A model generated the notes under the pieces. It did no database searches and had not been told where the DNA came from. It was given only the letters and a program-made list of their open reading frames with translations. Positions 4,537-55,825 of a stretch of DNA of 64,000 bases are shown in pieces. Source of the stretch: Chloroflexota bacterium (lineage in GTDB: Bacteria; Chloroflexota; UBA11872; VXOZ01); NCBI GenBank assembly GCA_965220015.1, contig OZ244798.1:1377790-1441789 (forward strand). Reading direction: 5' to 3'. Within the stretch, counting starts at the first letter, position 1, and every line of letters starts with the position of its first letter. Made by a program: the position numbers and the translations under genes.

Positions 4537-4540
<4 letters not shown>
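2795..4540 (+). CDS. Hypothetical membrane protein with a long Gln/Ala/Glu-rich low-complexity (coiled-coil-like) region; first gene of the MoxR-DUF58-VWA operon
   Basis: 581-aa ORF. The N-terminal third has 3-4 predicted TM helices ([67 protein letters not shown]). Next comes ~250 aa of Q/A/E-rich sequence ([35 protein letters not shown]). The stop overlaps the moxR start (ATGA). The start is uncertain: 2795 is TTG, an alternative is GTG at 2819, and no strong RBS is present. Confidence 0.6.
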
Positions 4541-5534
<994 letters not shown>

Positions 5535-5538
<4 letters not shown>

Positions 5539-6422
5539 AGCCGAGTCCTTCGGCATTGATCGACCATGCGTTCTTGCGGCGGTTGGACCGGCTGCAACTG
5601 ATCAGTCGACGCGGCTATGGCATGGTGAGCGGCGGCGGCAGGCGCAGCCGACAGTTCGGTTCGTCAATCGAGTTCGCCGACTACCGCAACTACAGCCCCG
5701 GCGATGACTTTCGCCACATAGACTGGAACGTCTTCGGTCGCTCGAATCGCCTCTACATCAAGCTGCGCGAAGCGGAAGAGCATCTTGCCGTTCACGTCCT
5801 CGTGGACGGCAGCCGCTCCATGGACTGGGGCCGGCAGAATAAGTTTGCGTATGCCAAGTCGCTGGCGGGCAGTTTGGGATACATTGCGCTGAATCGCGAC
5901 GACGTGCTGGCTGCCGCCGTGTTCAGCGATTCGGTCGAGCAGTACTTTGCGCCCGCCCAGGGCAGGGCCTTTGCCCTGCGCTTCTTCGACTTTCTCGAGC
6001 AGGCGGGCCCCGTTGGCGGCGCCACCTCGTTGGTAGCGGCGATACGCAATTACGTGGCCCGCAACGCGCAGCGCGGCCTGGTGATCTTGATCTCGGACAT
6101 GATGACGGAGGATGCCTATCGCGGCATCACGGCCATACAGGAAGCGGGGAATGAGCTTGTCCTCCTGCACGTGCTCGATTGGGCGGAAATCGATCCCGAA
6201 CTGAGCGGCGAGCTAAGTCTGGTCGATCGTGAAACCGGTCGATCCATCAATGTGGCGGCGGATGCGGAAACGCTCAACCAATACCGCGAGCACGTGCTCG
6301 ACTGGGCCGATCAGCTAGAAAAATTCTGCGGGCGGCGGAACGCGCGCTACGTGCGGCTCGAAACTTCATGGCCGCTGGAGGAAGTCATGTTTCAGCGGCT
6401 CTTGCGGAGAGTCGTTTTATGA
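5535..6422 (+). CDS. DUF58 domain protein (MoxR-associated, vWA-like fold)
   Basis: FGSSIEFADYRNYSPGDDFRHIDWNVFGRSNRLYIKL... followed by VLVDGSRSMDWG, which is typical of DUF58. ATGA overlap with moxR upstream and with the next gene downstream. Confidence 0.85.
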
Positions 6423-8266: not shown

Positions 8267-8268
8267 CA

Positions 8269-11001
8269 ATGCTTGCTTACTTTTCACAGCCATGGCTGCT
8301 CCTCCTGATCCCGCTGGCATGGATCGTAGTCATCTTGGTTGCCCGGCGTGGCGTGATGCAGCTTTCGCGGCGCACTCTCGTCTTGGCCACGACCCTGCGG
8401 CTGATAGCGATTGCCCTGCTTGTCTTGGCATTGGCCGGACTACGACTGCCGTTGTCAGGCGGACCGGTCAACACGATCTTCTTGCTGGACACCTCTGCGA
8501 GCATCCTGCCCGGGACTCAGGCCGCAGCCCGGCAGTGGATTGAAAGGGCGGCCGCACAGCGCGCGCCCGATGACAGCGTGGCGCTCTTGACATTTGGCGC
8601 GGGCACGCGCATCGACCAACCCTTTAGCCGTGGCGGCATTGGTGAGAGTGAAACCGCGGCCATTGTCGAAGAACGCACGAACATTGCGGACGCGTTGCGA
8701 ATGGCCGCGTCGCTGTTCCCACCCGACGCGCCGAAGCGAATCGTCTTGCTCTCTGACGGCAACCAAACCGCGGGTGACGTCATGCGCGCGGCGGAAGTCA
8801 TCGCGGCCCAGGGTGTGCAAGTGGACGTGGTGCCGCTCCTCGCGGAACCGGGGATCGATGCCGCCGTCACCGAGGTCGCGCCTCCGAATGCCCTACGGGA
8901 AGATGAAAACTTCGAAGTGCGGGTTACGGTGGCTGCCACGACCCAGGGCGAGGCGGTGCTGCGGCTGTTCATGAACGAAACGCTCGTGAGCGAGGGACCG
9001 GTTAGGCTGGAGTACGGCCAGAATTACTTTACAATCCAACAGCCTGGTATCGAAGAAGGGTTCTACTCATTTCGCGCCCAGGTGGTCGCGTCGGATGACC
9101 AGCGCCCGCAGAACAACGATGCGTATGGCTATTCACAAGTGGGGCCCAAGGGTCTCGTGCTGGTGGTAGAAAACATCGTTGGTGACGCAATCATACTTAC
9201 CCAGGCCCTCCAAGCAGCCGGAATCCAGGCGCAGAATGTCACGCCGGCCCAGTTGCCGACTCGCCCGGAAGATCTTGACGGCGTGTCCAGCGTGGTGCTC
9301 GTCAACGTCCCTGCCTCCCAGCTTACCGAACAGCAAATGCAGGCGCTCCAGGACTTTGTGAAGAGCTTTGGCGGCGGTCTCGTAGCGCTCGGCGGCGCTG
9401 CGTCATTCGGCATGGGCGATTATGGCGGCACGCCTTTGGAACATGCGCTGCCCGTCATCTCGCAGCCGCCGGACCATGAGGAATTGCCGACTCTCGCGCT
9501 GGCGCTCCTCATCGATAAATCAGGCAGCATGAACGAGGGCGCTCCGGTCTCCAAGATTGCCATGGCACGTGAAGCGGCGGCGCAGGCAGTTGAGATTCTG
9601 GAGAGCGGCGACGTGCTGGGCGTGCTGGCATTCGAATACTCGCCGCAGTGGGTGGTACGGCCCGCGCCGGTAAATGACGCCGAAGACGCGCAGAATGTTG
9701 TGCGGCGGGTTTCAACCATCGAGGCCGGGGGCGGCACCGACATCTACAACGCCTTGCAGCTTGCTTACGATACGCTCCGCCGTACGCCCGCGCAGGTGAA
9801 GCACATCATTCTCGTAACAGATGGGCAGTCCACTTCCGCGCCCGGCCTATGGGATGTCTTGATGACCCGCATGCGCCGCGACCACATTACGCTTTCAGCA
9901 GTGGCGATAGGGGCGGACGCCGATCAAATTCTGTTGCAGCGGCTGGTGCGGCTGGGTGACGGCAGGTACTACTATGCCGACGTGCCGGAGAACATTCCTC
10001 AGGTCGTGACAAAAGAGAGTCAGCGCGCGAGCCGCTCGCTGGTCATGAGCCGGCTCTTCCAGCCCCGGGTGGTAACGGCCAGCCCGATTTTGCGCGCAAT
10101 CTTGCCCGATTCCTTGCCCAATCTCTCCGCTTTCGTGCGTACAGAGCCAAAACCGGCCGCGGAGACACCGCTACTTTCTGACACTAGTGATGTGATATTG
10201 GCGCAATGGCAGTATGGTCTGGGCCGGGCGGTGGCGTGGACAAGCGATGCCGGCCAAGATTGGGCGGCAGACTGGGGTGAATGGCCCCAGAACCAGCAAT
10301 TCTGGGCGCAAATGGTGCGGTGGACAATGCCGAGTCCGCTCAATCCGCAACTGGCGACACAGGTACAGGTTGACGGTAGCGAGGTGACGGTGGCGGTGGA
10401 TTCGGTGGATGAGCAGGGCAACATTCGCAACTTGCTCAACACGCAAGTAGAGGTGGCAGGCCCGGAACAACGCGCCTTCTCACTCAACTTGCCGCAGACG
10501 GCGCCGGGGCGTTACGCAGGCACGCTGAATGTGGATAAAGCCGGTGTGTATGCCCTGCGCATAACGCAGTACGATGGCGATACGCCGGTGGTGGAGCAGA
10601 TTACGGGCGCCGTCGTGCCGGTTGCAGCCGAGTTCTTGAGCTTTGAGACCGACTATCGGCTCTTGCGGCGTTTGGCTACGGTCACAGGCGGGAAAGCACT
10701 GACGAGCGCGGCGGAGGCATTCCGACATGACCGGCCGCCGCCGGAGGGCTACAACCGGCCCTTCTGGCAGCCACTTGTAGTAATCGCGTTGATCCTGTTC
10801 GTTGCCGATATCGGTGTGCGCCGCCTGCGGTTTACCTGGTATGAGCTTGGGATATTTGGGTCAGTCGTGCGGTCGTTGCGCTTGCCGCGGCTAGGCGCTC
10901 CCTTGCAACGCGAGTTGCAACAGCAACTGCGGCAAGTGTCGCGCATGCGTTGGTTCGCGGGGCTGCAGTCCTGGTGGCAGCGCGTACCTAAGCGGTCCTA
11001 G
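8269..11001 (+). CDS. Large VWA-domain membrane protein (two vWFA domains with a GATase1-like middle domain)
   Basis: N-terminal TM helices and two VWA blocks (TIFLLDTSASILPG and ALLIDKSGSMNEG), then TVSTIEAGGGTDIYNAL, and a C-terminal TM helix. The ATG at 8269 lies 3 nt after the upstream stop; the ORF track start 8191 overlaps the previous gene. Confidence 0.8.
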   Translation: MLAYFSQPWLLLLIPLAWIVVILVARRGVMQLSRRTLVLATTLRLIAIALLVLALAGLRLPLSGGPVNTIFLLDTSASILPGTQAAARQWIERAAAQRAPDDSVALLTFGAGTRIDQPFSRGGIGESETAAIVEERTNIADALRMAASLFPPDAPKRIVLLSDGNQTAGDVMRAAEVIAAQGVQVDVVPLLAEPGIDAAVTEVAPPNALREDENFEVRVTVAATTQGEAVLRLFMNETLVSEGPVRLEYGQNYFTIQQPGIEEGFYSFRAQVVASDDQRPQNNDAYGYSQVGPKGLVLVVENIVGDAIILTQALQAAGIQAQNVTPAQLPTRPEDLDGVSSVVLVNVPASQLTEQQMQALQDFVKSFGGGLVALGGAASFGMGDYGGTPLEHALPVISQPPDHEELPTLALALLIDKSGSMNEGAPVSKIAMAREAAAQAVEILESGDVLGVLAFEYSPQWVVRPAPVNDAEDAQNVVRRVSTIEAGGGTDIYNALQLAYDTLRRTPAQVKHIILVTDGQSTSAPGLWDVLMTRMRRDHITLSAVAIGADADQILLQRLVRLGDGRYYYADVPENIPQVVTKESQRASRSLVMSRLFQPRVVTASPILRAILPDSLPNLSAFVRTEPKPAAETPLLSDTSDVILAQWQYGLGRAVAWTSDAGQDWAADWGEWPQNQQFWAQMVRWTMPSPLNPQLATQVQVDGSEVTVAVDSVDEQGNIRNLLNTQVEVAGPEQRAFSLNLPQTAPGRYAGTLNVDKAGVYALRITQYDGDTPVVEQITGAVVPVAAEFLSFETDYRLLRRLATVTGGKALTSAAEAFRHDRPPPEGYNRPFWQPLVVIALILFVADIGVRRLRFTWYELGIFGSVVRSLRLPRLGAPLQRELQQQLRQVSRMRWFAGLQSWWQRVPKRS

Positions 11002-28281: not shown

Positions 28282-29640
28282 CTAGAATAGCCGTCCTAGT
28301 AGCTCAACCGCGCACTCTTCCATCGCAGGCCCGGTGCCGACTCCGCCGAGCGACGAATAGCCGGCCCACGTTTCATAGCCGCCGTGCTCGGTCAGGGCCT
28401 TATCCGTGCACACATAGCCAATGTAACCGTTAGCCAGGCTCACTACGAATTGCGGAGAAGCGGGCGAATGCTGCTTGATGTTCAGGCCAAACTCCACAAA
28501 GATCTCGCCGGGCAAGGCGACAATTGATGCGTCTCCCAGACGCAGGGCTTGCACCGGCGCGGTGTGCGTAATCGGCATTTTGGCCAAGCGTTGGCACTCA
28601 ACTGCGTAAACGTCTGAAAGTTGACTCGGTAATGTTTGACCGACCACCCAGCTAAACGGACCGGAATCGTAATCGGAGTACGTTCCTGCGGGAACCGCCA
28701 GGATCTTCTCAGCCATGGCAAGGTCCTCGTCCGTGATGTCCTTGCGCTTGAAGTCGAAAGTGCCGACTGCGGCCCCAAGCACGAGCTCGTCCTGCATCTC
28801 CATGAGTTGAATCTCAGTGATGAGGTGGCCGGCAAGCACGTTTGCCATCTTAGCGGCTTGCTCGTGGCCGCTCGCGGTCCACTTGCGCTTGCCGCTGTAG
28901 TCATTGTTGTTGATGTCGCCCGAAGTACCGTTCCAGACCATGCCGACACATTGCGGGTCAAGGTAGCGTTGAATGAGCCGGTGGAAGTGCCCAAAGTAGT
29001 CTGCGGAAATGGCGAGGCCGTTGTCCGTGCCTACGTAGTGGAGGACGAAATTTGACACGGCGGCGATGGGCCGTCCGTCCGCCCCTTCGACGTAGAGCAT
29101 GGTGACTTCGGGATCTTTGGGATAGGTTGGCTTAACGAGGTCGGGATTGCCCGCGCCCGGGTTCATGCGCACGGTGCCGTCGCGCATGTGCCAGCGGCGG
29201 TTGAACGAGATGCGGTCCTCGTGAGCAGTGGCAAAGCCGATGCGCGCAGCCTGCAGGCGGTGAGTAGCTATTTCTACGGCATCCGCCATTTTGAGCGGCG
29301 CCCACTCGACATAGGCCTTGTCCTCGCCGGTGCCGAGGAGATCGGCAACGCCGGCGGCCGTATGGGTATGCGTCGCGTTGATCATGACGTTTTCGGGAGG
29401 GATGTCGCAGCGCGCGGCGATGCGCTCTTTGGCCCGGTCCGCCATCCCTTGGGGCATCACGATGAGGTCGCACGTAACAAGCGCAATCCGCATCTCGCCA
29501 TTGTCGATCACCAACGCCTTGGCCAGGAGCTCGTCGTCGACATGTTCGGCGTAGCGCGTACGATGGCTTCCCGGCACCTCTATGCCCAGCCACGGTGTGA
29601 TATTTGCCGTGGCAGCGCCGGCTTGCAGTGATGTACTCAC
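28282..29640 (-). CDS. Neutral/alkaline ceramidase N-terminal-domain-like hydrolase (paralog 1)
   Basis: AGAATANITPWLGIEVPG ... ALVIDNGEMRIALVTCDLIVMP ... NATHTHTAAG matches the neutral-ceramidase catalytic-domain pattern (GAAxxDITP ... HTHSGP). The start was set to the GTG at 29640, preceded by AAAGGAG at an 8-nt spacing. This parallels the paralog N-terminus MSGQLRAGAATANLTPW. Confidence 0.7.
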   Translation of the reverse strand: MSTSLQAGAATANITPWLGIEVPGSHRTRYAEHVDDELLAKALVIDNGEMRIALVTCDLIVMPQGMADRAKERIAARCDIPPENVMINATHTHTAAGVADLLGTGEDKAYVEWAPLKMADAVEIATHRLQAARIGFATAHEDRISFNRRWHMRDGTVRMNPGAGNPDLVKPTYPKDPEVTMLYVEGADGRPIAAVSNFVLHYVGTDNGLAISADYFGHFHRLIQRYLDPQCVGMVWNGTSGDINNNDYSGKRKWTASGHEQAAKMANVLAGHLITEIQLMEMQDELVLGAAVGTFDFKRKDITDEDLAMAEKILAVPAGTYSDYDSGPFSWVVGQTLPSQLSDVYAVECQRLAKMPITHTAPVQALRLGDASIVALPGEIFVEFGLNIKQHSPASPQFVVSLANGYIGYVCTDKALTEHGGYETWAGYSSLGGVGTGPAMEECAVELLGRLF

Positions 29641-29895
29641 GAGCGTCACTCCTTTTGTTCGCTTGCCCGGACTTGTCCACTGTAGACGCAAGTATAGCGT
29701 AGAATGATGTCAAACGGAATGGCAGAGATTCCTGATCTGGCCCACCGACAGCATGTAAGTCTGCCATGACTTGGGATGGAGAATCACTAGGCTCGAAGCT
29801 CAGTACATCCGGTCGCGCCAGCGCACCATTGACAGCCGCAGCGCCAACGTCTTACGATGTTTGCAGACCCTACAGTGTAGTAAGGATTGCTACCG

Positions 29896-30546
29896 ATGCT
29901 AAGATTTGCTGAAGAAATCATGCTGCTCCTTCTCGATGATGAGAGTGGAGAATTCGCGCATATTCCCGAATGGTCGCTACGGTACGCCCTGGCAGGCGCG
30001 GTGCTGATGGACATTGCGCTGGAAGACCGAATCGACACCGATCCGAAGCAGCTTACCTTGCTGAACCCGACCCCGACCGGGGACGACTTGCTCGATCCGA
30101 CCCTGGAGAGCATCGCGCAAGCAACCGAAGGGCACGACATCTGCCATTGGATCGAACACACGGCTGAGAGTGCGTACTCGATCCGCGACAAAGCGATGAA
30201 GAGACTTATCATGCACGGCATTCTAGAGAGTCGCGATGATCGCTTTCTCTGGGTGTTCCGTTCGCGGCGTTACCCAATCGTTGACGGCAAGGCCGAGCGG
30301 GAAGTGAAGCTGCGGATCATGGAAGTACTCTTTAGCGACGTGATCCCCGACCCGCGCGACATCGTGATTATCTGCCTGGCAGACGCTTGCGGCATCTTTC
30401 GAATGCTACTGTCCAAGCAGGAGTTGAAGCTCGCCGCCGCGCGCATCGAACAGGTACGCAAGCTTGACCTTATCGGCCAGGCGGTCTCGCAGGTGGTGTG
30501 GAACATCGAGGCATCCCTAGCGCTCTCCATGCACCCGATGGCATAG
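29896..30546 (+). CDS. GPP34 / GOLPH3-like family protein
   Basis: MLRFAEEIMLLLLDDESGEF...LRYALAGAVLMDIALEDRI matches the N-terminal signature of bacterial GPP34 (Golgi phosphoprotein 3-like, PF05719) proteins. ATG at 29896 is preceded by TAAGGA 9 nt upstream. Transcribed divergently from ceramidase-like paralog 1. Confidence 0.7.
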   Translation: MLRFAEEIMLLLLDDESGEFAHIPEWSLRYALAGAVLMDIALEDRIDTDPKQLTLLNPTPTGDDLLDPTLESIAQATEGHDICHWIEHTAESAYSIRDKAMKRLIMHGILESRDDRFLWVFRSRRYPIVDGKAEREVKLRIMEVLFSDVIPDPRDIVIICLADACGIFRMLLSKQELKLAAARIEQVRKLDLIGQAVSQVVWNIEASLALSMHPMA

Positions 30547-30595
30547 CCCCTAGGGGCCACGCTCTCGGTTCCCCCAGTGCACATAGCGGCGGTGT

Positions 30596-31972
30596 TTAGC
30601 GGCTTTGCTGCGGAAGCGAGTGGCAAAGGCTAGCTAGTTGCCGACCGGCAACGGCGGCAAGTTGCTCAGCCGTGCCTGATGCGGCGATGGAGTGCGGTGA
30701 GGCCCAGGTCTCATAGCCGCCCTGCTGTTCCAGCGCCTCTTGCGTACATATGTACCCCAAGTAGTCATTGGCAAGTTCAGCGACGAGCGTGGGGTGAAAG
30801 GGGCTCTGCCCCTTGATGGCGAGGCCCGTTGCGGCAAAGATTTCGCCAGGCAGCGCCACCAGGGCAGCGTTCCCAACGCGTAGCGATTGTACGCGCGTAT
30901 CCAAGACCTCCGGCATTGCCGCTAGGTCTATACATGCTTGCGCGTAGACTTCGATGTGCTTTTCCCACACCGGCTGTCCGACTACCCAGCTAAAGGGGCC
31001 GGAATCATAGGTGAATGTGGTGGGGTCTTCTAGGATCCGGCGGGCCGTAACGACGTCTTCAGCCGTGATGCGCTTGCGTGTGTAGGGAACCGTCGCCAGT
31101 ACGGCGTCCAATGGACACGAGTCGTGCAGTTCGATGAGTTGCGTCTCTTTAAGGACATGTCCCGCGAGCACTGCGGCCATCTTGCACGCTTGGGCATGGC
31201 CGCTTTCGCCCCATGTCCGCCGGCCGCTGTAGTCAACATTGTTGATGTCGCCTGACGTGCCGTTTTGGAGAATTGGCAGGCACTGTGGGCCGAGCACACG
31301 CTGCAATTCCGCGGTGAAGTGACCGTAGTAGTCGGCGGAGAGTGCCGTTGGCGAGTCGGCGCCAACGTAGTGGAGCGCAAAAGTGGCAAATAGGGCCAGC
31401 GGCGTCCCTGCCACATCTTCCAAGTACAGGAAGCTCAACGCAGGATCGATTGTGCCGGCGGGACGCACACTGTTGGGATTCCCAACCCCGGGAATCATCT
31501 CTACCGTGCCGTCGCGCATCCACCAGCGCCGGTTAAAGCTGATGCGATCTTCCCGCGCTTCTCCCCAGCCGATACGCGCAGGCCGGAGCCCGTTTACTGC
31601 CAATTGCACCGCGTCCGCGATCTTGGCCGGTACCCACTCAACATACGCCGGGTCTTCGTTCACGCCGAGCGCGGTACGCACTGCGGGTCCGCTGTGGGTA
31701 TGCGTAGCGCAGATAAGCAGGTGGCTGGGCGGGATGCCGCTGTTCTTCGCTACGCGTTCCTTAACCGCATCGGCAATGCCCCTGGGCATGCAGACAAAGT
31801 CACAGACGACGATGCCAATCCTATTCTCGCCGTCATCCAGCACCAACGCCTTCGCATGAATTTCGTCATGAACGTCTGTTGCCTGCCGCTGTCCAAAGCC
31901 TCCGCAAAGGGCAATATCCAGCCAGGGGGTCAAGTTGGCAGTTGCGGCGCCTGCGCGAAGCTGGCCTGACAT
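30596..31972 (-). CDS. Neutral/alkaline ceramidase N-terminal-domain-like hydrolase (paralog 2)
   Basis: RAGAATANLTPWLDIALCGG ... ALVLDDGENRIGIVVCDFVCMP ... CATHTHSGPAV. Collinear with paralog 1 over the full length. The start was set to the ATG at 31972 (MSGQL...), with AAAGG upstream. Confidence 0.7.
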   Translation of the reverse strand: MSGQLRAGAATANLTPWLDIALCGGFGQRQATDVHDEIHAKALVLDDGENRIGIVVCDFVCMPRGIADAVKERVAKNSGIPPSHLLICATHTHSGPAVRTALGVNEDPAYVEWVPAKIADAVQLAVNGLRPARIGWGEAREDRISFNRRWWMRDGTVEMIPGVGNPNSVRPAGTIDPALSFLYLEDVAGTPLALFATFALHYVGADSPTALSADYYGHFTAELQRVLGPQCLPILQNGTSGDINNVDYSGRRTWGESGHAQACKMAAVLAGHVLKETQLIELHDSCPLDAVLATVPYTRKRITAEDVVTARRILEDPTTFTYDSGPFSWVVGQPVWEKHIEVYAQACIDLAAMPEVLDTRVQSLRVGNAALVALPGEIFAATGLAIKGQSPFHPTLVAELANDYLGYICTQEALEQQGGYETWASPHSIAASGTAEQLAAVAGRQLASLCHSLPQQSR

Positions 31973-32111
31973 AATGTATGTGCCTTTTGCTTGCTGCACA
32001 GCAGCGGGGCGCGTGCGAGACCTGCCGTGCCCCTGTGAGCAAGAAACGCCGCGCTAGTGCGACTCTCTCCCAGGATGGCAGGCGGCATCAACTAGAGCAA
32101 ATCCTGCCGAG

Positions 32112-37172: not shown

Positions 37173-37205
37173 GTTGCCGGTGTGAAGTCTCCTCACACCG
37201 GCAAC
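37173..37205. terminator. Hairpin GTTGCCGGTGTGA-AGTCTCC-TCACACCGGCAAC (13-bp stem) between the YdeI-like gene 3' end and the ABC operon promoter region
   Basis: Perfect 13-bp inverted repeat with a 7-nt loop, ~77 nt beyond the stop of the minus-strand gene that ends at 37282. No clear U-tract follows. Confidence 0.35.
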
Positions 37206-37281
37206 TTGCGATTCTTGCTGTGCGAGCGTGGAAACTCCGTAGTGTGCATCTGTTGGCATGGTTTGGCTGGGACTTAGTGGT

Positions 37282-37842
37282 CTACGCTCTGTCAGTCAGC
37301 TCTTTCACGTAACCGAAGGTCTTGTTCTTTGCCGTCATTCTGACAAGATTGTCCAGACGTTTCTTGAATTCCGCCGGCCGGTTGCGCGCGGATTCTACGA
37401 ACGCCACGCGAATGCGGCGATAGTCTTCCGGAAAACTCTGAAAGTGCTGCCACGTTTGGGCGTCCTGCTGCAGGGCAGTCTCGATATCCGGCGAAATCGT
37501 AAACGGTTCATCGAGGATGACGCCCCGCGCTACGGCGAGCCCGGCAGGCATCATTTTCCCCTCAGCGATGAGATTGCGCAGGCGCACCCTATTCGATTCC
37601 GACCAGTTGCTCCCCGGCTTGCGGGGCGAGAACCGCTGGGCGAAGCGCTCTTCATCGATGCCCTTTTGCTGACTGTCTATCCAACCGAAACAGAGCGCCT
37701 CTTCCACGGCGGCGTTATATGCGACCCGGGGCTTGCCGGTGGCTTTGCGGTAGTAGACGAGCCAGACTTCCTTGGCAGCGGCGTGATGTTCCTGCAGCCA
37801 CGCTCGCCACTCTTCTCTGTCCTTGGCATAGAAGGTATCCAT
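37282..37842 (-). CDS. YdeI/OmpD-associated (DUF1801-like) family protein
   Basis: MDTFYAKDREEWRAWLQEHHAAAKEVWLVYYRK...AVEEALCFGWIDSQ matches the YdeI-like family pattern. The start was set to the Met at 37842. Confidence 0.7.
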   Translation of the reverse strand: MDTFYAKDREEWRAWLQEHHAAAKEVWLVYYRKATGKPRVAYNAAVEEALCFGWIDSQQKGIDEERFAQRFSPRKPGSNWSESNRVRLRNLIAEGKMMPAGLAVARGVILDEPFTISPDIETALQQDAQTWQHFQSFPEDYRRIRVAFVESARNRPAEFKKRLDNLVRMTAKNKTFGYVKELTDRA

Positions 37843-38072
37843 GAAGCGCAATCCTGCTCGCGGAAAAAAGGTCTACATAAGGAAGATTCTATTCTTGCTT
37901 GATGCTCTTGTCGCCAGCCAAGCGAAGCTGCGCTAAGGGAGAGGATTGGTTGCTGGTTAATTCAGGTCGCTGGTGCGTGTCTGCGATGGAACTCTTGTGG
38001 CGCCTGTTGTCTGCCAAAGCCCAAATAGATTGGGCGGCAAGGTCAGCAACCGGGCCGGCGGTTACCTGGAGG

Positions 38073-38570
38073 CTACTCCACATCGTCCATTGGCGGCTCC
38101 GGGGCGGGTTCGATCAGGGCGAGCGGCTGGCCGTATTCCACGGGCTGTTTGGCATCCACCAGAAACCGTTCTAGAGTACCGGCATAGGGCGCGTGGACTT
38201 CATTGAGGACATTGAGCACCTCGATGTAGCCGAGCAACTGCCCTTCCTTTACCGTTGCGCCCTCATCGATGACGGGAAGCTGGTCCTGGCTGCGGCTGCG
38301 GGCAAACACTCCTACCCTACCCGCATGCACCACGTGCAACTGTGGCTCGGTTTCCTCCACTGCAGGGGCCGGGGGCGTTGCAGCCGCAGAAAAAACCTGG
38401 GCCGTACGCTTGATCGCCACGCGTATGCCGCCTTGCTCGAGGGACAGTTCTTCTACGTCAGAATTTGAGATGAGGTCAAGCAGCGGCTTCAGGCGCTCAT
38501 GCACGACTTGCGAGAGCGCAGGCGCCGGTCCGGAGGAGCCCTCTTCTGACTTTCCGTCTTTATCACTCAC
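38073..38570 (-). CDS. Biotin carboxyl carrier protein (AccB)-like protein lacking the biotinyl-lysine
   Basis: N-terminal LKPLLDLISNSDVEELSLEQGGIRVAIKR and an Ala/Pro-rich linker. The C-terminal biotinyl/lipoyl hammerhead reads GRVGVF...PVIDEGATVKEGQLLGYIEVLNVLNEVHAPYAGTL, which aligns with E. coli BCCP IVEAMKMMNQIEADKSGTV. The EAMKM motif is replaced by EVLNV, so no Lys is present. ATGA overlap with efp. Confidence 0.7.
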   Translation of the reverse strand: MSDKDGKSEEGSSGPAPALSQVVHERLKPLLDLISNSDVEELSLEQGGIRVAIKRTAQVFSAAATPPAPAVEETEPQLHVVHAGRVGVFARSRSQDQLPVIDEGATVKEGQLLGYIEVLNVLNEVHAPYAGTLERFLVDAKQPVEYGQPLALIEPAPEPPMDDVE

Positions 38571-39133
38571 GACAAACGTACCCGTTCAATGTAACCGTTC
38601 GTGCGCGTATCCACGCGAATCGTGTCGCCCACATTGACGAAGAGCGGCACGTTGACGACCAATCCTGTCTCCACCGTTGCGGGTTTCGTACCGCCGGCGG
38701 CAGTGTCGCCTTTGACGCCAGGGGCGGTGTCGGCTACCTCAAGTTCGATTGAGGGAGGCAAGGCCGCGTCGAGGACACGCTCGCCGTGCATCTCGAGCTC
38801 AATCGTTGCGCCATCCTTGAGGAAATTAACCGCGTTCGCCAAGAGGGATGCGTCTACGAGAATCTCGTCGTAGGATTCCGTATCCATGAAATGAAAGACG
38901 TCATCGTCGCGGTAGAGGAATTGTGCGGGGCGTTGCTCAAGCCGAATCTGGCGAAAGCGCGCACCGGCATCGCAAGTACGATCGATGATGTGGCCGTCCT
39001 GCACGTGCCGGAGCTTTAGGCGCACCACTGCGCCGCCACGGCCCATCTTGATGTGTTTCACCTCTTCCAGACGGAAGATAGCGTCTTCATATTCGATTAC
39101 GACTCCTCGTCGTAGGTTGCCGGTCTCGATCAA
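38567..39133 (-). CDS. efp: Translation elongation factor P
   Basis: MIETGNLRRGVVIEYEDAIFRLEEVKHIKMGRGGAVVRLKLRHV... spans the three OB-domain EF-P architecture, 188 aa. The loop residue is Arg (KMGRGGA) rather than the E. coli Lys34. Confidence 0.92.
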   Translation of the reverse strand: MIETGNLRRGVVIEYEDAIFRLEEVKHIKMGRGGAVVRLKLRHVQDGHIIDRTCDAGARFRQIRLEQRPAQFLYRDDDVFHFMDTESYDEILVDASLLANAVNFLKDGATIELEMHGERVLDAALPPSIELEVADTAPGVKGDTAAGGTKPATVETGLVVNVPLFVNVGDTIRVDTRTNGYIERVRLS

Positions 39134-39162
39134 CGCGCAATGCCTCCTACAGTCTCTCTAGT

Positions 39163-40257
39163 CTAGAATTTCATCTTTAGCGAACCGGTAAGAATGTCGG
39201 CGCCGTCGTCGCGGAGCAACACCAGGTCCTCGATGCGTACGCCGCCGACACCGGGCAAGTATACGCCGGGCTCGATGGACACAACGGCGCCGGCAGGCAG
39301 CGGTGTATCCCCCGCAAGCGGGGAAAGGCGTGGCGCTTCGTGAATCTCAAGACCTACGCCGTGCCCCAGACCATGGCCGAAGTGGTCGCCGTGCCCGGCC
39401 GCCACGATGACCTCGCGGGCCAACGCGTCTGCCTCAACGCCGGTCATTCCCGCACGCACGTGTGCTTCTGCCGCTTCCTGAGCCTTAAATACAAGGCGGT
39501 AAATTGCTTGCATTTCCGCGGACGGAGTGCCGAGTACTACGGTCCTCGTCATATCCGAGCAGTAGCCGTCGGCGATGCAGCCAAAATCCATCACAATGAA
39601 CGAGTCTGCAGGGATGACATCGTCCCCCGGGCGGTGATGCGGCATAGCGCCGTTAGGACCGGCCGCAACAATTGATGGGAAGGACAGTCCCTCGGCGCCA
39701 CCCTCGCGCATCAGCACCTCCAAGCGCCACGCGACTGCCTTCTCGCTTATGCCGGGACGAAGCCACTTAACCAGCTCGCCAAAGGCGTTGTCGGCGATGA
39801 TTATGGCGCGCTGCAACGCAGCCACTTCATCCGGCTCCTTCGCCACCCGGAAGTTTTCTACAACCCCTTGCGCTCCTTCAAGCTTGATTTCACCGTCCAA
39901 GCTCTCGCGGTAGGTTTCGTAGGCGGCCACGCTCACGTGTTCGGATTCGAATGCCAGCCGCTCAACGTCATGATCTTTGCAGAGTCCCAAGAGCAATGGA
40001 GCGAATGGCCCTGCCTGCGGCACTATCGTGAAAACCGGGGCTTGCTTCTCCGCTTGTTCGGTGTAGCGTGAATCCGTGATCAGAAGGGCGGCGCCGGAGC
40101 TGATAAGCAGCCAGCCGGAACTGCCTGTAAAGCCGGAGAGATAGCGGCGGTTGTAGTCGTTGCTCACCAGCAAGGCGTCTGACTCAGTTTCCTGAAGCCA
40201 GTCCCGCACTTTCTGCAGACGAGGGGCGGTTGGGGGTGGTGTTGGGCTCATGCTCAC
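39163..40257 (-). CDS. Xaa-Pro aminopeptidase / M24B family peptidase
   Basis: N-terminal creatinase-like domain, then the M24 pita-bread domain with the metal ligands (HGLGHGVGLEIHE). Adjacency to efp mirrors the yqhT-efp arrangement in Bacillus. Confidence 0.88.
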   Translation of the reverse strand: MSMSPTPPPTAPRLQKVRDWLQETESDALLVSNDYNRRYLSGFTGSSGWLLISSGAALLITDSRYTEQAEKQAPVFTIVPQAGPFAPLLLGLCKDHDVERLAFESEHVSVAAYETYRESLDGEIKLEGAQGVVENFRVAKEPDEVAALQRAIIIADNAFGELVKWLRPGISEKAVAWRLEVLMREGGAEGLSFPSIVAAGPNGAMPHHRPGDDVIPADSFIVMDFGCIADGYCSDMTRTVVLGTPSAEMQAIYRLVFKAQEAAEAHVRAGMTGVEADALAREVIVAAGHGDHFGHGLGHGVGLEIHEAPRLSPLAGDTPLPAGAVVSIEPGVYLPGVGGVRIEDLVLLRDDGADILTGSLKMKF

Positions 40258-40324
40258 GATGCTAGTGGCTGCTGCTCAGTCCGTGTCACTACAATTGTAG
40301 CATGCTGCCCTGGCCGGAGTTTTT

Positions 40325-41053
40325 CTAAGGCTGGGGTACGGCGAGGATCGCATTGAGACCGATAAGCCAGCGGGCAATGCGGCCGGTCACGTTCACTTCT
40401 ACCCAAGCGGCAGTAACGAGTAAGGGGATTACAAGAAACACGTACCCCTTTACAACATTCGCCGCGGCCCAGACGACATTCTCAGTAGTACTGAGAGAGG
40501 TCACGGGCCGAAAGAGCGACCAGGCGAGGCGCATTGAAAGCGCGCTGCCGAACAGGATGGCGGGGATTTCAAACACGCCGTGGGGCGCCACGAGCAACAA
40601 GCCGATAAGCACCTTGAGCGGCGCCATGGCTTCGATCTGTACGGCGAGCATACCCAGGAGGATACCGGGAAGCGTCGCGACAATTAGAGGATACAAGCCG
40701 ACCGTAAACACGGCGAGCACGGGGCTAAGGAGCATAATACGCAAATTATTACGCATGATAGCCGTGGTAGAGATGGATTCCGCCCCGCCAAGATGCTCGA
40801 TCTGGGCGGCGTACGCGCGCAGAAGTGTCTCAGTTTCGCTCGGGAAGAGTTCAGCGAGGGCAACACCCCCGGCCACGCCAACAAAAAACAAACCGGCGAT
40901 GAATAACATCAATCGCCGGTTGAAACTCAAGAGGGCCGGGATGTCTTGGGCGTAGACGCGAACGAGGGAGAAGCGAGCTTGCGATGTGCAGGGCGCGCCT
41001 GCAGCGTCACAGACTGCCGTGCCTAGCCAGCGGAGCAGTTGCCGCGACGGCAC
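40325..41053 (-). CDS. DUF95 / stage II sporulation protein M-like membrane protein
   Basis: NRRLMLFIAGLFFVGVAGGVALAE... plus four further TM helices fit the SpoIIM/DUF95 topology. The start is uncertain: a GTG near 40963 or a downstream Met are alternatives. Confidence 0.55.
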   Translation of the reverse strand: MPSRQLLRWLGTAVCDAAGAPCTSQARFSLVRVYAQDIPALLSFNRRLMLFIAGLFFVGVAGGVALAELFPSETETLLRAYAAQIEHLGGAESISTTAIMRNNLRIMLLSPVLAVFTVGLYPLIVATLPGILLGMLAVQIEAMAPLKVLIGLLLVAPHGVFEIPAILFGSALSMRLAWSLFRPVTSLSTTENVVWAAANVVKGYVFLVIPLLVTAAWVEVNVTGRIARWLIGLNAILAVPQP

Positions 41054-41059
41054 AACTCG

Positions 41060-41329
41060 CTAACTCTTCTTGGCCGCGTCCTCGGTGCTTGCCGCTGGTT
41101 CAGACGCCTCCTGCTTCACATCAGAGCTTTCGCTGGCTGGTGCGGCTGCTTCCTCTTTCTTCTCTCCATCCGACTCGGGATCCTGATCCTCTTCTTTCAT
41201 CGCCGTGCGGAACTCTTTGATGCTCTTACCGAGCGATCCGCCGAGGCCGGCAATCCGGCTTCCGCCAAAGAGAATAACGATGATTACAAGGATGATGAGG
41301 AGCTCTGTCCACCCGAATGTGCCAAGCAT
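41060..41329 (-). CDS. tatA: Twin-arginine translocase subunit TatA/E
   Basis: MLGTFGWTELLIILVIIVILFGGSRIAGLGGSLGKSIKEFR is the canonical TatA TM and amphipathic helix, followed by an acidic tail. Confidence 0.88.
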   Translation of the reverse strand: MLGTFGWTELLIILVIIVILFGGSRIAGLGGSLGKSIKEFRTAMKEEDQDPESDGEKKEEAAAPASESSDVKQEASEPAASTEDAAKKS

Positions 41330-41742
41330 TCCCGTTTAACCTTTCATACGCAGTAGTCATTCTTAGCCTGAATTCCATAATACGCGCCTAGGAACCGAGA
41401 ATCAAATTGAGTCAAATCACACAGTGACGAGGCGGTTTCGATGGTTGCTGCTTAAATGCAACAGTACTCAGAATGCTATTAGAGAAATCCTCAGGACAAA
41501 GTTGCCTGCATCCTCAGAGAAAGTCGCCGAATACGAAGTGAAAGCTAGGCGCAGAATCTCAAAGGGTTTCCCGGTTACCCGTTGCAAATCTAGAGTTTAG
41601 TCCGGTGTTCTTGCAGGGCTTTGGCCGGTGTGCCAACGGTTGTTTCTCCCAAAGTGCTGTGCTATCGTGAGAGTAACATCATGGTGCCGCAAGACGTTAG
41701 CTACCATGTGAGCGGTTGCCACCCAAATGCGAGGCTTGACCC

Positions 41743-49363: not shown

Positions 49364-49614
49364 TCTCGATGCCGCACGCCCAGTTGGACAGTCTAGGCGA
49401 CCTTAGAAGGGCGTATCTAACCGCTTCGGCAGCGCAGTATTTCCCTGCAAGAGCTAGTAGGCTAAGGGGCTTGCAATTGTGGCATCATAGGAATGGATTG
49501 CTGTCTTTCGCCACCTGGTTTTTCCGTTAGGCGTGCCGGCGAGGCTACGATTTAACTATAGGCGCGCGCATTTATCCTCGCTGTGGGCAATTGAACGACG
49601 ACGGTGCAAATGGG

Positions 49615-52452
49615 ATGAATTCTGAGCTAAAACAGACCGGTTTACGGCGAGTGCCCATTGAGCAACTCCGCGACGACGTGCACTTTCTCGGGAGTGTGCT
49701 TGGCAGCGTGCTGAGCGAGCAGCACGGCGAGGCCCTATTGGAATTGGTTGAGGACATTCGTCTGAGCGCGATTTTCCAGCGCACGACCACCGCCACCGTG
49801 GCGCTGCAGCCCCTCGCTGACTCTGTGGCGGGGCTGCAGCACGATGAAATGTTTGCCGTCGCCCGCGCGTTCTCGCTGTACTTCTACTTGATAAACGCCG
49901 CTGAAGAGCAACATCGCCTGCGCCGCATCCGTGAGAATGAGCGCAAGGGCCATCCCAAGCCGCGCTACGAGTCCATCGCCGCCGCGACGGCACGTCTGCG
50001 GAGCGAAGGCGTCCCCCCTGAGGAACTCTCGCCAATTCTCGCGTTGCTTTCCATTCGACCGGTCTTCACGCGCCACCCCACGGAAGTTCGGCGGCGCACG
50101 TTGCTCGTATTCCTTGAAATGCTGCGGGCCTGCCTGGCCGAACGCGAAGGCGTGGGCCAGGACCTTTCGATTGAGCAACGTACGAGCGAGAAGATCCGCG
50201 AAATCGTGACGATATTGGCCCAGACCGACATTACGCCTTGGGAGCGGCCCACCGTTCTTGGTGAGGTCGACGACGGCCTCTACTACTTCGATCACGTCCT
50301 TCTCGACGTGATTCCTATGCTCTACCACGAACTTGAAGACGCACTGAGGGAGAACTACGCCGATCACAGGTTTTCGTTGCCTCGATTCTTGACTTTTGGC
50401 TCCTGGATGGGTGGCGACCGGGACGGCAATCCGTTTGTCACGCCCGCAGTCACGGAAGAGACCTTGCGCATGCATCGGTCGTTGATCCTCGATCGCTACA
50501 CGCGAGACCTGGACGAGCTCTGGCGTGTCCTTAGTCCTTCGGTCCATTACGCTTCGGTCTCACAGGAGCTAATGGACTCCATCGCTCGCGATCGCGCTTC
50601 GCTGCCCGGCGCGGGTGTTGGCGCGAAGACCGAAATCAACGAGCCATACCGGGCGAAGATTCTCATGATGCAGAAGCGCTTGGCGCGCACCAGAAGACGC
50701 TACGCCGGCGGAAGCGCGGCGGCTTCCGGCGCGTACCACGACCCCACCGACCTGCTCGCGGACCTCGTGCGCATACGCGAGAGCCTCATCCAAAACGGCG
50801 GCGAACGCATTGCCCGCGGCCAACTGCGCGACGTGATTCGACGGGTTCAGGTCTTTGGTTTTCATCTGGTGGACTTGGACGTGCGCGAACATAGCGCGGT
50901 CCACGCCGCTGCGCTCGATGAGTATCTCAACGCCGCCGGCGTCGTTACCAGGTACAGCGATCTTGACGAAGCAGACAGAGTCTCCGTGCTTTCCCGGTTG
51001 CTCGCTGATCCGGCGGCAATTGGCTTTCAGGAACTCTCTGTTTCTGCCGCTGCCCAACAAGCATTTCAAACGTTGACGAGTGTTGCCCGCATGCAGGCGG
51101 AGGTGGGCGTCGCGGCCTGCAATACGTACATCATAAGCTTCACGGAGACCGTGAGTGACGTCTTAGAAGTGGCTGTGCTGGCGAAAGAGGCCGGTTTGTG
51201 GCAGATAGATGCTGCAGGCCAAGTGAGTGAAAGTCGCCTCAAGATCGTACCGTTGCTCGAAGCCATTGCGGACTTGCGCGGCAGTCACGACCTCATTCAC
51301 GCGCTGCTTTCAATTCCCATCTTCCGCTCTCACGTTGCCTGCTGGGACGACCGCATCGAGGTCATGCTGGGGTACTCCGACAGCAACAAGGACGGTGGCT
51401 TTCTTACGGCTACCTGGGAACTCTACTGCGCGCAGAAGCGGGTCGTCGCGGCATGCCGCGCTCACGATGTAATCGTCCAGCTCTTTCATGGACGCGGAGG
51501 CGCACTGGGTCGGGGCGGTGGACCGACGAACCGGGCGATCATGGCGCAACCGCCGGACTCGTTGGCCGGCGGCATGAAACTGACGGAGCAAGGTGAGGTC
51601 ATATTCTCGCGGTACGGTCGTCAGGCCGTTGCCCACCGCAATCTCGAACAGGTCATTTACGCCATGCTCTTGGCGCGGCTCAGTCCGAGCGTGCTGGAGT
51701 CCCGCGCTTCTCTCGAGCCCGATTGGGAGAGCACCATGGCAACGCTCTCGGAAACGGCATTTCGCGCCTATCGGTCATTGATTTACGAGACGCCGGAACT
51801 GCGTGCGTATTACCAGCAAGCAACGCCGATCGAACACATCAGCCGCATGAACGTTGGCTCGCGGCCGGCGTCGCGCAAGGGCGGCGACCGCGTGGAAGAC
51901 CTGCGGGCAATTCCGTGGGTATTCGCTTGGACACAGAGTCGACATAACGTACCCGGGTGGTATGGAGTTGGCAGCGCGTTGCACGCATTCATCAACGCGC
52001 ATGAGCGCAATTTGGAGCGTTTGCAGGCGATGTACAATCGTTGGGTATTCTTCCGCTCTGTGATCGACAATGCCCAACTGAGCATTGGCACGAGCGATAT
52101 GTCGGTTGCGCGCCTCTATGCCGAATTGGTTGAAGATGCAGCCGTGCGCGATAAGGTCTATGCCGCCATCGCGGAGGAATATGAGCGTACGCGGGAAGCG
52201 CTACGTCAAATTACGGCCCAGGAGCAGCTACTGGATTCTTCGCCGGTGCTCCAGCGTTCGATCTTGCTCCGTAATCCTTACGTTGATCCCTTGCACTGCC
52301 TGCAGGTGCGCATGATGAGTGAATGGCGCACGAAGTTCGCTTTGGAGTCGGAGACACCTCTGGATGAACTTTCGACGGAAGCGCGCCGGTTGTTGGAGGG
52401 CATCTTCCAGACGATCAACGGCATTGCCGCAGGTGTGCAATCGACTGGATAG
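49615..52452 (+). CDS. ppc: Phosphoenolpyruvate carboxylase
   Basis: FHGRGGALGRGGGP motif, VMLGYSDSNKDGG, and the C-terminal ...INGIAAGVQSTG (ppc-type xNTG end). The start was set to the ATG at 49615; the track start 49591 is TTG. Confidence 0.92.
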   Translation: MNSELKQTGLRRVPIEQLRDDVHFLGSVLGSVLSEQHGEALLELVEDIRLSAIFQRTTTATVALQPLADSVAGLQHDEMFAVARAFSLYFYLINAAEEQHRLRRIRENERKGHPKPRYESIAAATARLRSEGVPPEELSPILALLSIRPVFTRHPTEVRRRTLLVFLEMLRACLAEREGVGQDLSIEQRTSEKIREIVTILAQTDITPWERPTVLGEVDDGLYYFDHVLLDVIPMLYHELEDALRENYADHRFSLPRFLTFGSWMGGDRDGNPFVTPAVTEETLRMHRSLILDRYTRDLDELWRVLSPSVHYASVSQELMDSIARDRASLPGAGVGAKTEINEPYRAKILMMQKRLARTRRRYAGGSAAASGAYHDPTDLLADLVRIRESLIQNGGERIARGQLRDVIRRVQVFGFHLVDLDVREHSAVHAAALDEYLNAAGVVTRYSDLDEADRVSVLSRLLADPAAIGFQELSVSAAAQQAFQTLTSVARMQAEVGVAACNTYIISFTETVSDVLEVAVLAKEAGLWQIDAAGQVSESRLKIVPLLEAIADLRGSHDLIHALLSIPIFRSHVACWDDRIEVMLGYSDSNKDGGFLTATWELYCAQKRVVAACRAHDVIVQLFHGRGGALGRGGGPTNRAIMAQPPDSLAGGMKLTEQGEVIFSRYGRQAVAHRNLEQVIYAMLLARLSPSVLESRASLEPDWESTMATLSETAFRAYRSLIYETPELRAYYQQATPIEHISRMNVGSRPASRKGGDRVEDLRAIPWVFAWTQSRHNVPGWYGVGSALHAFINAHERNLERLQAMYNRWVFFRSVIDNAQLSIGTSDMSVARLYAELVEDAAVRDKVYAAIAEEYERTREALRQITAQEQLLDSSPVLQRSILLRNPYVDPLHCLQVRMMSEWRTKFALESETPLDELSTEARRLLEGIFQTINGIAAGVQSTG

Positions 52453-52686: not shown

Positions 52687-53583
52687 GTGGCGATGAAGAC
52701 GACCGTCCTACCGGAAACCTTGACGTCGAACGGAAATGCCTTTGACCTATCCAATGAGACGTTCGGAGAGTTGAGGGACGCCAATGGCTTGCTCGGAAAC
52801 ATGCCGGCGATTCACGAACGCTTCGCCGAGGATGGTTACCTGCTTTTCCGCAGCTATTTGGACAAGGAAAAGGTGATGGCGGCACGCCGCGAGCTAATTG
52901 AGAAGCTCGATTCAATCGGGCTTATAAACCGCTCTAAGCCGCTGGTGGACGCTATCTTTTCGGGTGATACCAGCGGCATCAGCGCGACGGACCGCAAGGA
53001 ATTTGCCAGAAGTCTCCGCTCCGGCCCAGCGTTAAAGGAGATTTGTTTCTCCGGTCGGATCATGTCGTTCTTCGAGGAATTCTTTGGAGACGAAATCATG
53101 CACCTCAATTACATCTGGGTGCGGAACAGACGGCGCGGGGCTGCCGCGCCCTGCCACTTTGACTGGGTGTATATGGGTCGCGGTACGCGGAATGTGATGA
53201 CGGCGTGGATACCGCAGGGAGCGGCGCCGCTTGTCGATGGCCCACTGGCGATCTTGCACGGTTCCCATAAGTGGCAGGAGCTCCAGCAGACCTACGGCAG
53301 CATAGATGTCGATAAGGACAAAGAAAAGAATCCCTACGGCGGCGGCTCGCTCACGAAGGACCCGAATCAGCCCCAGCAGCTTTATGGCGGGCGCTGGCTC
53401 ACGACGGAGTTCGAGCCGGGCGACGTGCTCATGTTCGGCATGTTCACATTGCACTGCTCGCTTGACAACGAAAGCCCGGAAAACCGCATTCGCCTTTCAA
53501 CCGATACCCGCTACCAACTCGCCAGCGAACCCGCGGACGAGCGCTGGATTGGCGACGATCCGTTCGGCCACGGCATGATGTAG
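52687..53583 (+). CDS. Phytanoyl-CoA dioxygenase (PhyH) family Fe(II)/2-oxoglutarate oxygenase, copy 1
   Basis: HFDWVYMGRG (HxD iron ligands) and the distal His in FTLHCS. GTG start preceded by GAGGGAG at a 6-nt spacing. ~85% identical to copy 2. Confidence 0.8.
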   Translation: MAMKTTVLPETLTSNGNAFDLSNETFGELRDANGLLGNMPAIHERFAEDGYLLFRSYLDKEKVMAARRELIEKLDSIGLINRSKPLVDAIFSGDTSGISATDRKEFARSLRSGPALKEICFSGRIMSFFEEFFGDEIMHLNYIWVRNRRRGAAAPCHFDWVYMGRGTRNVMTAWIPQGAAPLVDGPLAILHGSHKWQELQQTYGSIDVDKDKEKNPYGGGSLTKDPNQPQQLYGGRWLTTEFEPGDVLMFGMFTLHCSLDNESPENRIRLSTDTRYQLASEPADERWIGDDPFGHGMM

Positions 53584-54928: not shown

Positions 54929-55825
54929 GTGGCGATGAAGACAACGGTCCTACCGGATACTTTGACATCGAACGGCAATGCCTTCGACCTCTCCAACGAG
55001 ACGTTTGGGGAGTTGCGAGACTCCAAGAGCCTGCTGGGCAACACGGCGGCGCTGCACGAGCGGTTTGCCGAAGACGGCTATTTGCTCCTGCGCGGTTACT
55101 TGGACAAGGAAAAGGTGCTCGCGGCGCGCCGAGAGCTGATTGGCAAGCTCGATGAAATCGGCCTGATCGATCGCGCGCGTCCCTTTATGGATGCCGTCTT
55201 CTCAGGTGATACCAGCGGCATCAGCGCGAGCGACCGGCAGGAATTTGCCCGCCATCTCCGCTCAGGTCCGGCGCTAAAGGAGGTCTGCTTCTCCGGCAGG
55301 ATAATTTCCTTCTTCGAGGAGTTTCTCGGTGATGAAGTGCTGCATCTCGATTACATTTGGGTGCGCAACGTGCGGCGCGGCGCGGCCACCGGCTGCCACT
55401 TCGATTGGGTCTACATGGGACGCGGGACGCCAAAACTAATGACGGCGTGGATCCCGCAGGGTGAGGTGCCTCTCGGCGACGGTCCGCTGGCGATTCTGCA
55501 AGGTTCGCACAAGTGGCATGAGTTACAGAATACTTACGGCAAGATTGACGTGGACAGGGACAAGGATAAGAACCCCTACGGCGGCGGTTGGCTGACGAAG
55601 AATCCGAATCAGCCCCAGCAGCGCTACGGCGGGCGCTGGCTCACCACGGAGTTCGAGCCGGGCGACCTGCTCGTCTTCGGTATGTTCACGCTCCACTGCG
55701 CAATTGATAACGAAAGCGCGAAGAACTGCATCCGCCTCTCAACCGATACGCGCTACCAACTCGCCAGCGAACCCGCCGACGAGCGTTGGATCGGCGACGA
55801 CCCCTTCGGCCACGGCATGATGTGA
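54929..55825 (+). CDS. Phytanoyl-CoA dioxygenase (PhyH) family Fe(II)/2-oxoglutarate oxygenase, copy 2
   Basis: Collinear with copy 1 (MAMKTTVLPDTLTSNGNAFDLSNETFGELRD...HFDWVYMGRG...FTLHCA...GDDPFGHGMM). GTG start with GGGAGGG upstream. Confidence 0.8.
   Translation: MAMKTTVLPDTLTSNGNAFDLSNETFGELRDSKSLLGNTAALHERFAEDGYLLLRGYLDKEKVLAARRELIGKLDEIGLIDRARPFMDAVFSGDTSGISASDRQEFARHLRSGPALKEVCFSGRIISFFEEFLGDEVLHLDYIWVRNVRRGAATGCHFDWVYMGRGTPKLMTAWIPQGEVPLGDGPLAILQGSHKWHELQNTYGKIDVDRDKDKNPYGGGWLTKNPNQPQQRYGGRWLTTEFEPGDLLVFGMFTLHCAIDNESAKNCIRLSTDTRYQLASEPADERWIGDDPFGHGMM

Follow-up and report, generated by a model that had tools for sequence, protein, structure and literature searches.

What does a biotin carboxyl carrier protein (BCCP, the product of accB) do once it has lost the lysine to which biotin is attached? 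The question is raised by a gene in a 64,000-nucleotide stretch of the genome of a Chloroflexota bacterium (assembly GCA_965220015.1, contig OZ244798.1, forward-strand positions 1,377,790 to 1,441,789; hereafter the window), which overlaps the end of efp, the gene for elongation factor P (EF-P), and whose product resembles BCCP with an asparagine, Asn120, in place of the biotinyl-lysine. We found that the gene is neither a sequencing artefact nor a pseudogene, and that, judging from alignment and gene order, it is not a one-off: many Chloroflexota have a lysine-less gene in the place of accB, and together these orthologues form a large clade. Its product might serve as a non-catalytic partner of biotin carboxylase (BC), a proposal that is weighed below against other uses of the retained fold.

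The protein keeps the BCCP fold without the biotinyl-lysine

The window protein passed the Pfam model Biotin_lipoyl (PF00364; 31.4 bits, gathering cut-off 22.1) and stayed below the cut-off of the NCBIfam BCCP model TIGR00531 (79.7 against 115.2 bits). In a phmmer comparison with the sequences of the Protein Data Bank, residues 62-154 matched E. coli BCCP (4hr7, 1bdo) with zero gaps, and the segment 'lgyiEVLNVlnevha' lay opposite 'lcivEAMKMmnqiea', which puts Asn120 in the column of E. coli Lys122. The first-pass annotation, made from the letters of the window, had read the hairpin as EAMKM replaced by EVLNV, and the alignment bears this out. It had also described a complete BCCP architecture, and the AlphaFold2 model (101 sequences) agreed: helix 19-34, a beta-hairpin formed by residues 41-46 and 49-54, a disordered Ala/Pro linker (58-73) and a confidently predicted domain (predicted local distance difference test, pLDDT, >90 at residues 77-155) that Foldseek superposed, thumb included, on 1bdo and 4hr7 with a root-mean-square deviation of 0.8-0.9 Å over 76 ungapped residues (template-modelling score 0.91-0.95). 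Identity to the E. coli domain was 37%.

The window protein thus shares with AccB the N-terminal alpha/beta/beta motif, the Ala/Pro linker, the thumb-bearing biotinyl-type domain and the genomic slot after efp. It differs in having Asn for the biotinyl-lysine and Leu and Val for the flanking methionines, in scoring under the family cut-off, in an extra acidic C-terminal tail, and in that accC is not adjacent, which was likewise the case in all Chloroflexota loci examined.

Could the protein still be a carrier, through another residue or another prosthetic group, or could the asparagine be a sequencing or assembly error? Asn and Lys codons are one third-position base apart, which leaves room for such an error; a restored lysine, after correction of an error or a frameshift, was in fact the outcome that the first-pass annotation said would overturn its reading. 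However, about 30 homologues from independent assemblies, at 61-98% identity, all read (I/V)EVLNV(L/R)NE(V/I) at the hairpin, and the Asn120 codon varied between genomes, being AAT in some and AAC in others. The same homologues shared the acidic tail PAPEPPxDDVE, which canonical BCCPs do not have. The other candidate raised at the outset, the lysine of VKEGQ (Lys108), does not fall at the hairpin tip either: since E. coli BCCP aligns without gaps, the tip cannot be reassigned to a different residue. All lysines of the C-terminal domain varied among relatives, with K, E, T, V, A or Q at position 108 and mostly R at position 141, and other members of the clade had G, R, D, Q, H, S or E in the biotinyl-lysine column itself. 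A carrier of another kind, or an error, is therefore hardly credible. With the lysine missing in every close homologue, no other lysine of the domain conserved and the biotin-handling residues relaxed (see below), the conclusion holds that biotinylation of the window protein at its canonical site is impossible and that the protein would not be a functional carboxyl carrier.

A large lysine-less clade in Chloroflexota

We ran a family-profile search over 1.84 billion cluster representatives (clusters at 50% identity). Among the 150 best-scoring representatives, about 65 carried N, G, R, Q, H, D, S or E in place of the lysine. A second profile, built from 65 lysine-less sequences, brought in 114 further proteins, all 114 of them without the lysine and 104 with Asn, most being Ktedonobacterales-like. 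All named lysine-less proteins were from Chloroflexota or Ktedonobacterales. In a neighbour-joining tree of 160 sequences, computed on about 150 columns and carrying no bootstrap support, 64 of 67 lysine-less proteins fell on one side of a single bipartition; seven divergent lysine-bearing proteins shared that side, and their named relatives were Armatimonadota and Fervidibacterota. These searches place the window gene in a large lysine-less BCCP clade that, as far as the named sequences go, is confined to Chloroflexota. The clade covers at least the lineage of the window and Ktedonobacterales, which are 30-40% identical to each other, a distance that implies very long retention.

The replacements at the hairpin were diverse. 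Among efp-linked Chloroflexota loci the hairpin read EAMRM (L005), EALNV (L012), EAMSV (L018) and ESLNV (L066), and it read EALNV in Ktedonobacterales (L008); six loci of Roseiflexus-type Chloroflexia (L011, L033, L037, L060, L063 and L077) had EAMKM. The L012 homologue (positions 10001-10429 of that locus; EALNVFNEIEAP) comes from a metagenome-assembled genome labelled 'uncultured Chloroflexia bacterium', and the other Chloroflexia-labelled loci keep EAMKM; either this genome is loosely labelled or Chloroflexia, too, have members that lost the lysine. The seven lysine-bearing proteins grouping with the clade (P0132, P0157, P0160, P0203, P0207, P0210 and P0213) are divergent BCCP homologues with altered lysine flanks, for example IESVKLWNEV, VESLKVPNEI and IEAMKVPNEL, and may be intermediates or sister lineages. 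A separate observation concerns the fourth best match of the family profile, P0114, a metagenomic protein of 546 residues in which four tandem biotinyl-type domains come after a TIR_2 domain; EAMKM is kept in the second of the four, and the other three have lost the lysine.

Databases label the lysine-less proteins as 'acetyl-CoA carboxylase biotin carboxyl carrier protein (subunit)', 'biotin/lipoyl-containing protein' or 'hypothetical protein'. Since automatic pipelines thus treat them as working carriers, metabolic reconstructions of Chloroflexota count a carrier that would be unable to carry biotin. A literature search of limited reach returned no account of bacterial lysine-less BCCP homologues or of such a clade. 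The fold and the family were already known, and so was, from plant BADCs, the idea of a BCCP without its lysine; the bacterial clade appears to be undescribed in the limited literature searched.

Constraint is lost around the biotin site and kept elsewhere

To see which positions changed along with the lysine, conservation was compared column by column between 67 lysine-less proteins and 86 lysine-bearing cluster representatives (window numbering; fractions given as lysine-bearing against lysine-less). The lysine at position 120, present in all 86 representatives (1.00), was lost in the lysine-less group, and its surroundings followed: conservation fell at P84 (0.99 against 0.43), T88 (0.90 against 0.39), Y90 (0.93 against 0.39), the thumb residue P95 (0.94 against 0.36), A118 (0.99 against 0.27) and M122 (0.86 against 0.28), and position 119 had switched from Met (0.98) to Leu (0.81). 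Three positions of the N-terminal motif were kept almost unchanged, namely L30 (0.86 against 0.85), E41 (0.98 against 0.96) and E45 (0.77 against 0.73), and conservation was comparable to that of true BCCPs at R55 and in the structural core (V86, G87, F89, G104, G110, G131 and QPVEYGQPL). The surroundings of the biotin site are thus relaxed or switched across the lysine-less group, and the N-terminal motif and the core of the fold are kept. The C-terminal tails of the lysine-less proteins tended to be longer and more acidic (median of 4 against 2 residues, a comparison uncorrected for shared ancestry), and within the family of the window and Ktedonobacterales the hairpin was nearly invariant, E[AVS]LNV[LYF]NE.

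Selection on the gene was estimated from the window and four relatives. Pairwise ratios of nonsynonymous to synonymous substitution (dN/dS, Nei-Gojobori) were 0.11-0.30, and in the C-terminal domain of the same five sequences dN was 0.06-0.16 at a dS of about 1; these values are rough because synonymous sites are near saturation, with dN still clearly far below dS. For efp of the same genomes dN/dS was 0.03-0.13. The open reading frame (ORF) was intact and the start junction conserved at every locus examined, and in a scan that covered each GTDB species with a single genome the window's own family had two species representatives, both named Chloroflexota bacterium. The Asn120 gene is therefore neither a sequence error nor a pseudogene, and it is under purifying selection.

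These data bear directly on whether the gene is a relic, that is, a former accB drifting to loss with no function of its own. The score under the NCBIfam cut-off, the varied residues in the former lysine column and the relaxed biotin-handling residues are what such decay could look like. Against this, nonsynonymous change is strongly held back, every locus examined has an intact frame, conservation of the fold core and of the N-terminal motif matches that in functional BCCPs, and the gene was kept in both the lineage of the window and Ktedonobacterales. The relic reading is largely refuted by the selection analysis, and we consider it very improbable.

The gene occupies the position of accB

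In the window a SpoIIM-family gene precedes an M24 peptidase gene, efp and the lysine-less gene, and on the other side an ABC transporter lies beyond a YdeI/OmdA-family gene; relatives had the conserved order SpoIIM - M24 peptidase - efp - lysine-less gene - OmdA - ABC. The OmdA gene occupies the slot held in other Chloroflexota by xseA, which lay 3' of the gene both in three lysine-less loci (L005, L008 and L066) and in the Chloroflexia loci that have the lysine. All lysine-less loci examined had the M24 peptidase, efp and the lysine-less gene in this order, usually followed by xseAB, and a contig of Ktedonobacterales type read aroQ - M24 peptidase - efp - lysine-less gene - xseA - xseB. This corresponds to the arrangement in Bacillus, aroQ - papA - efp, then accB - accC and, further on, xseA - xseB. 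In Nitrospirota, Methylomirabilota, Latescibacterota and others accB stood immediately downstream of efp. Gene order thus identifies the lysine-less gene as a positional orthologue of accB.

The first-pass annotation had noted that no accC follows. The absence itself was confirmed, as a tblastn search with biotin carboxylase matched neither the window nor any of the 20-kb loci of relatives, but it has no diagnostic weight: accC came directly after accB in 66 of 66 loci from outside Chloroflexota, and a BC gene lay within 10 kb in none of 16 Chloroflexota loci, those of lysine-bearing Chloroflexia (EAMKM) included. Because the absence is a trait of the whole phylum, it is uninformative on the lysine. 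A six-frame search of the window for the motif E[AST]MK[MLVIT] gave zero matches, and Pfam scans of 30 further window genes returned no acc, bir or fab genes. The window also encodes a phosphoenolpyruvate carboxylase (49591-52452), with which anaplerosis need not rely on a biotin enzyme.

The start of the lysine-less gene was correctly said to overlap the stop of efp, though not as ATGA: the junction reads ...CGT TTG TCG TGA / GTG AGT GAT AAA, an overlap of GTGA. Relatives of the window gene had a similarly tight junction, either GTGA or TAGTG, and this conservation makes the translational coupling to efp proposed at the outset plausible. A scan for terminators and promoters over 37200-41500 returned a single weak promoter-like site (37914-37886), ahead of the downstream OmdA gene, and an Rfam scan of the window returned nothing beyond two tRNAs.

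Possible functions of the lysine-less protein

Several known systems bear on what a BCCP fold may do without biotin. For the first ~30 residues of E. coli BCCP the prediction is an alpha/beta/beta motif that builds a beta-barrel holding the carriers in the filament of acetyl-CoA carboxylase (ACC), and the N-terminus has also been discussed as a regulator of expression (PMC11160672). In Chloroflexus, of the same phylum as the window, the fused BC-BCCP named BC1 combines with carboxyltransferase (CT)-beta/alpha into an active ACC, the hairpins of its BCCP part forming an eight-stranded barrel that links two BC dimers; in Chloroflexus aurantiacus the stand-alone BCCP and a second BC (BC2) have no assigned role (PMC11077971). 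Given a working fused carrier in a Chloroflexota ACC, a stand-alone BCCP would be dispensable as a carrier, although in Chloroflexus and Roseiflexus, in contrast with the window, the stand-alone protein retains EAMKM. Plants have BADCs, BCCP homologues that are not biotinylated and are reported to associate with BC and to modulate the BC-BCCP subcomplex or assemble it (PMC12706156, PMC11889953). The window protein is like BADC1-3 of plastid ACCase in being a BCCP homologue that would not be biotinylatable; it differs in that BADCs are extra paralogues beside true BCCPs, whereas the window gene sits in the accB locus itself. Given this nesting at the Chloroflexota accB locus, the bacterial proteins probably arose independently of plant BADCs.

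Since the protein would have given up carrying biotin while keeping the fold and the N-terminal module, and with these precedents from E. coli, Chloroflexus and plants, we propose that it is a non-catalytic, BADC-like subunit that oligomerises, docks on biotin carboxylase and tunes its assembly or activity, and we put the probability of this reading at about 0.45. The scaffold or regulator suggested in the first-pass annotation is likewise a reasonable, if conjectural, reading. The protein would no longer carry carboxybiotin; its conserved N-terminal motif and intact biotinyl-type domain would allow it to oligomerise and to dock on BC, the likeliest partner being a fused BC-BCCP such as the one in the active ACC of Chloroflexus; and, once docked, the subunit would adjust how the carboxylase assembles or how active it is, as BADCs do in plants. 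Translational coupling, inherited from an ancestral efp-accB operon, would hold it at a fixed ratio to EF-P.

Several observations weigh against this proposal. Neither the window nor the surrounding 10 kb of any lysine-less locus contained a gene for BC, CT, BirA or a lysine-bearing biotinyl domain; the only functional partner that the gene neighbourhood offers is efp; the hairpin, relaxed across the clade but nearly invariant in the family of the window and in Ktedonobacterales, could mean a new binding partner instead of BC; and the clade is delimited by a tree of few columns and no bootstrap support. A rival reading is a moonlighting role unrelated to carboxylase, for which the gene would have been kept after a switch to another carrier, be it PII binding, autoregulation of the peptidase-efp-accB operon through the N-terminal domain or a link to EF-P. 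Such a role would account for efp being the only constant neighbour with an overlapping junction that is conserved, and for the strong conservation within the subfamily of both the hairpin and the tail EPPxDDVE, as expected of a specific new interface. It also has precedents: PII binds bacterial BCCP and, in plants, the non-biotinylated BADC (PMC12706156), and the AccB N-terminus has been discussed as an expression regulator in E. coli (PMC11160672). The linkage of efp and accB, however, is ancestral and widespread and for that reason need not mean a common function, and two results speak against the link to EF-P: the EF-P loop carries Arg at its tip in all Chloroflexota loci, uncorrelated with the lysine state of the neighbour, and knock-down or over-expression of accB in B. 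subtilis left the modification state of EF-P unaltered (PMC5885033). A moonlighting role is therefore somewhat unlikely in our judgement.

Extended beyond the window, the BADC-like proposal becomes more tentative. In much of Chloroflexota outside Chloroflexia, the accB orthologue may have turned into a non-biotinylatable decoy or assembly subunit of a fused BC-BCCP carboxylase, convergent with plant BADC, or else its Asn hairpin and acidic tail may bind a new partner unrelated to carboxylase. Were the protein a non-catalytic BC partner, the plant BADC regulators would have a first counterpart in bacteria, which would also be a simple system for studying the control that carrier mimics exert on the committed step of fatty-acid synthesis; a decoy or assembly subunit would make carrier mimicry a general means of ACC regulation. 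For evolution, the clade illustrates one possible fate of a stand-alone carrier in a phylum with a known fused BC-BCCP enzyme (Chloroflexus).

EF-P and proline pairs

In all Chloroflexota loci examined (the window, L001-L005, L011, L012, L018, L037, L066 and L077) the modification loop of EF-P read K-[MLIQ]-G-R-G-[GS]-A, with Arg at the tip. The other phyla in the set had K-P-G-K-G, with the exception of L014 (Halanaerobiales), which had Arg. The type of EF-P was accordingly rejected as an explanation, the Arg-tip loop being phylum-wide and independent of lysine state.

The lysine-less protein itself contains proline pairs, in the linker (TPPAP, 38370-38378) and in the tail (EPPM, 38076-38105); among 25 family members, 22 had EPP in the tail and 11 had PPP in the linker. 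With proline pairs in these two places, translation of the protein may depend on the EF-P encoded just upstream. A special dependence through enrichment in polyproline was considered and dismissed, with 0.91 PP motifs per lysine-less and 1.05 per lysine-bearing protein.

Features of the locus and other genes of the window

The features of the locus are collected in Table 1.

Table 1. Features of the lysine-less BCCP gene and its neighbours (window positions).
Feature	Positions	Strand	Description and basis
Lysine-less BCCP homologue, coding sequence	38073..38570	-	165 aa, GTG start, TAG stop at 38073-38075; ORF list, Pfam and NCBIfam BCCP models, E. coli BCCP alignment
N-terminal alpha/beta/beta motif (residues 19-54)	38409..38516	-	Helix 19-34, hairpin 41-46/49-54; homologue of the N-terminal domain of BCCP that serves oligomerisation / BC association; AlphaFold2 secondary structure, weak phmmer alignment to the E. 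coli BCCP N-terminus
Ala/Pro-rich flexible linker (residues 55-76)	38343..38408	-	pLDDT <50 at residues 58-73; alignment composition
Biotinyl-type beta-sandwich domain with thumb (residues 77-155)	38106..38342	-	pLDDT >90; Foldseek matches 1bdo, 4hr7
Asn120 codon AAT, biotinyl-lysine column at the hairpin tip	38211..38213	-	Ungapped alignment to E. coli K122
Subfamily-specific acidic, proline-rich C-terminal tail PAPEPPMDDVE (residues 156-165)	38076..38105	-	Nearly invariant in 25 family members; not in canonical BCCPs
GTGA start/stop overlap with efp	38567..38570	-	Sequence; GTGA or TAGTG in relatives
efp (elongation factor P)	38567..39133	-	188 aa, Arg32 at the loop tip, loop KMGRGGA; Pfam, NCBIfam
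M24 Xaa-Pro aminopeptidase	39163..40257	-	29 nt upstream of efp, probably same operon; Pfam, NCBIfam, conserved synteny
YdeI/OmdA-family gene	37282..37851	-	Downstream neighbour after a 221-nt gap; Pfam, synteny

Elsewhere in the window, two paralogous genes with weak matches to the N-terminal domain of neutral/alkaline ceramidase (28282-31999) flank a GPP34 (Golgi phosphoprotein 3) homologue at 29887-30546, and the same trio was present in a relative (L001). Two PhyH paralogues (phytanoyl-CoA dioxygenase family; 298 aa each) lie at 52687-53583 and 54929-55825, with three small ORFs between them. An AMP-binding enzyme of acetyl-CoA synthetase type (431-2752, minus strand; 773 aa) matched ACAS_N only from residue 155, and its first ~150 residues, without a Pfam match, could be an N-terminal extension or the result of a start called too early. 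Finally, a cluster at 4537-11001 comprises genes for a MoxR AAA ATPase and a DUF58 protein, then small ORFs and a gene for a large VWA-domain protein.

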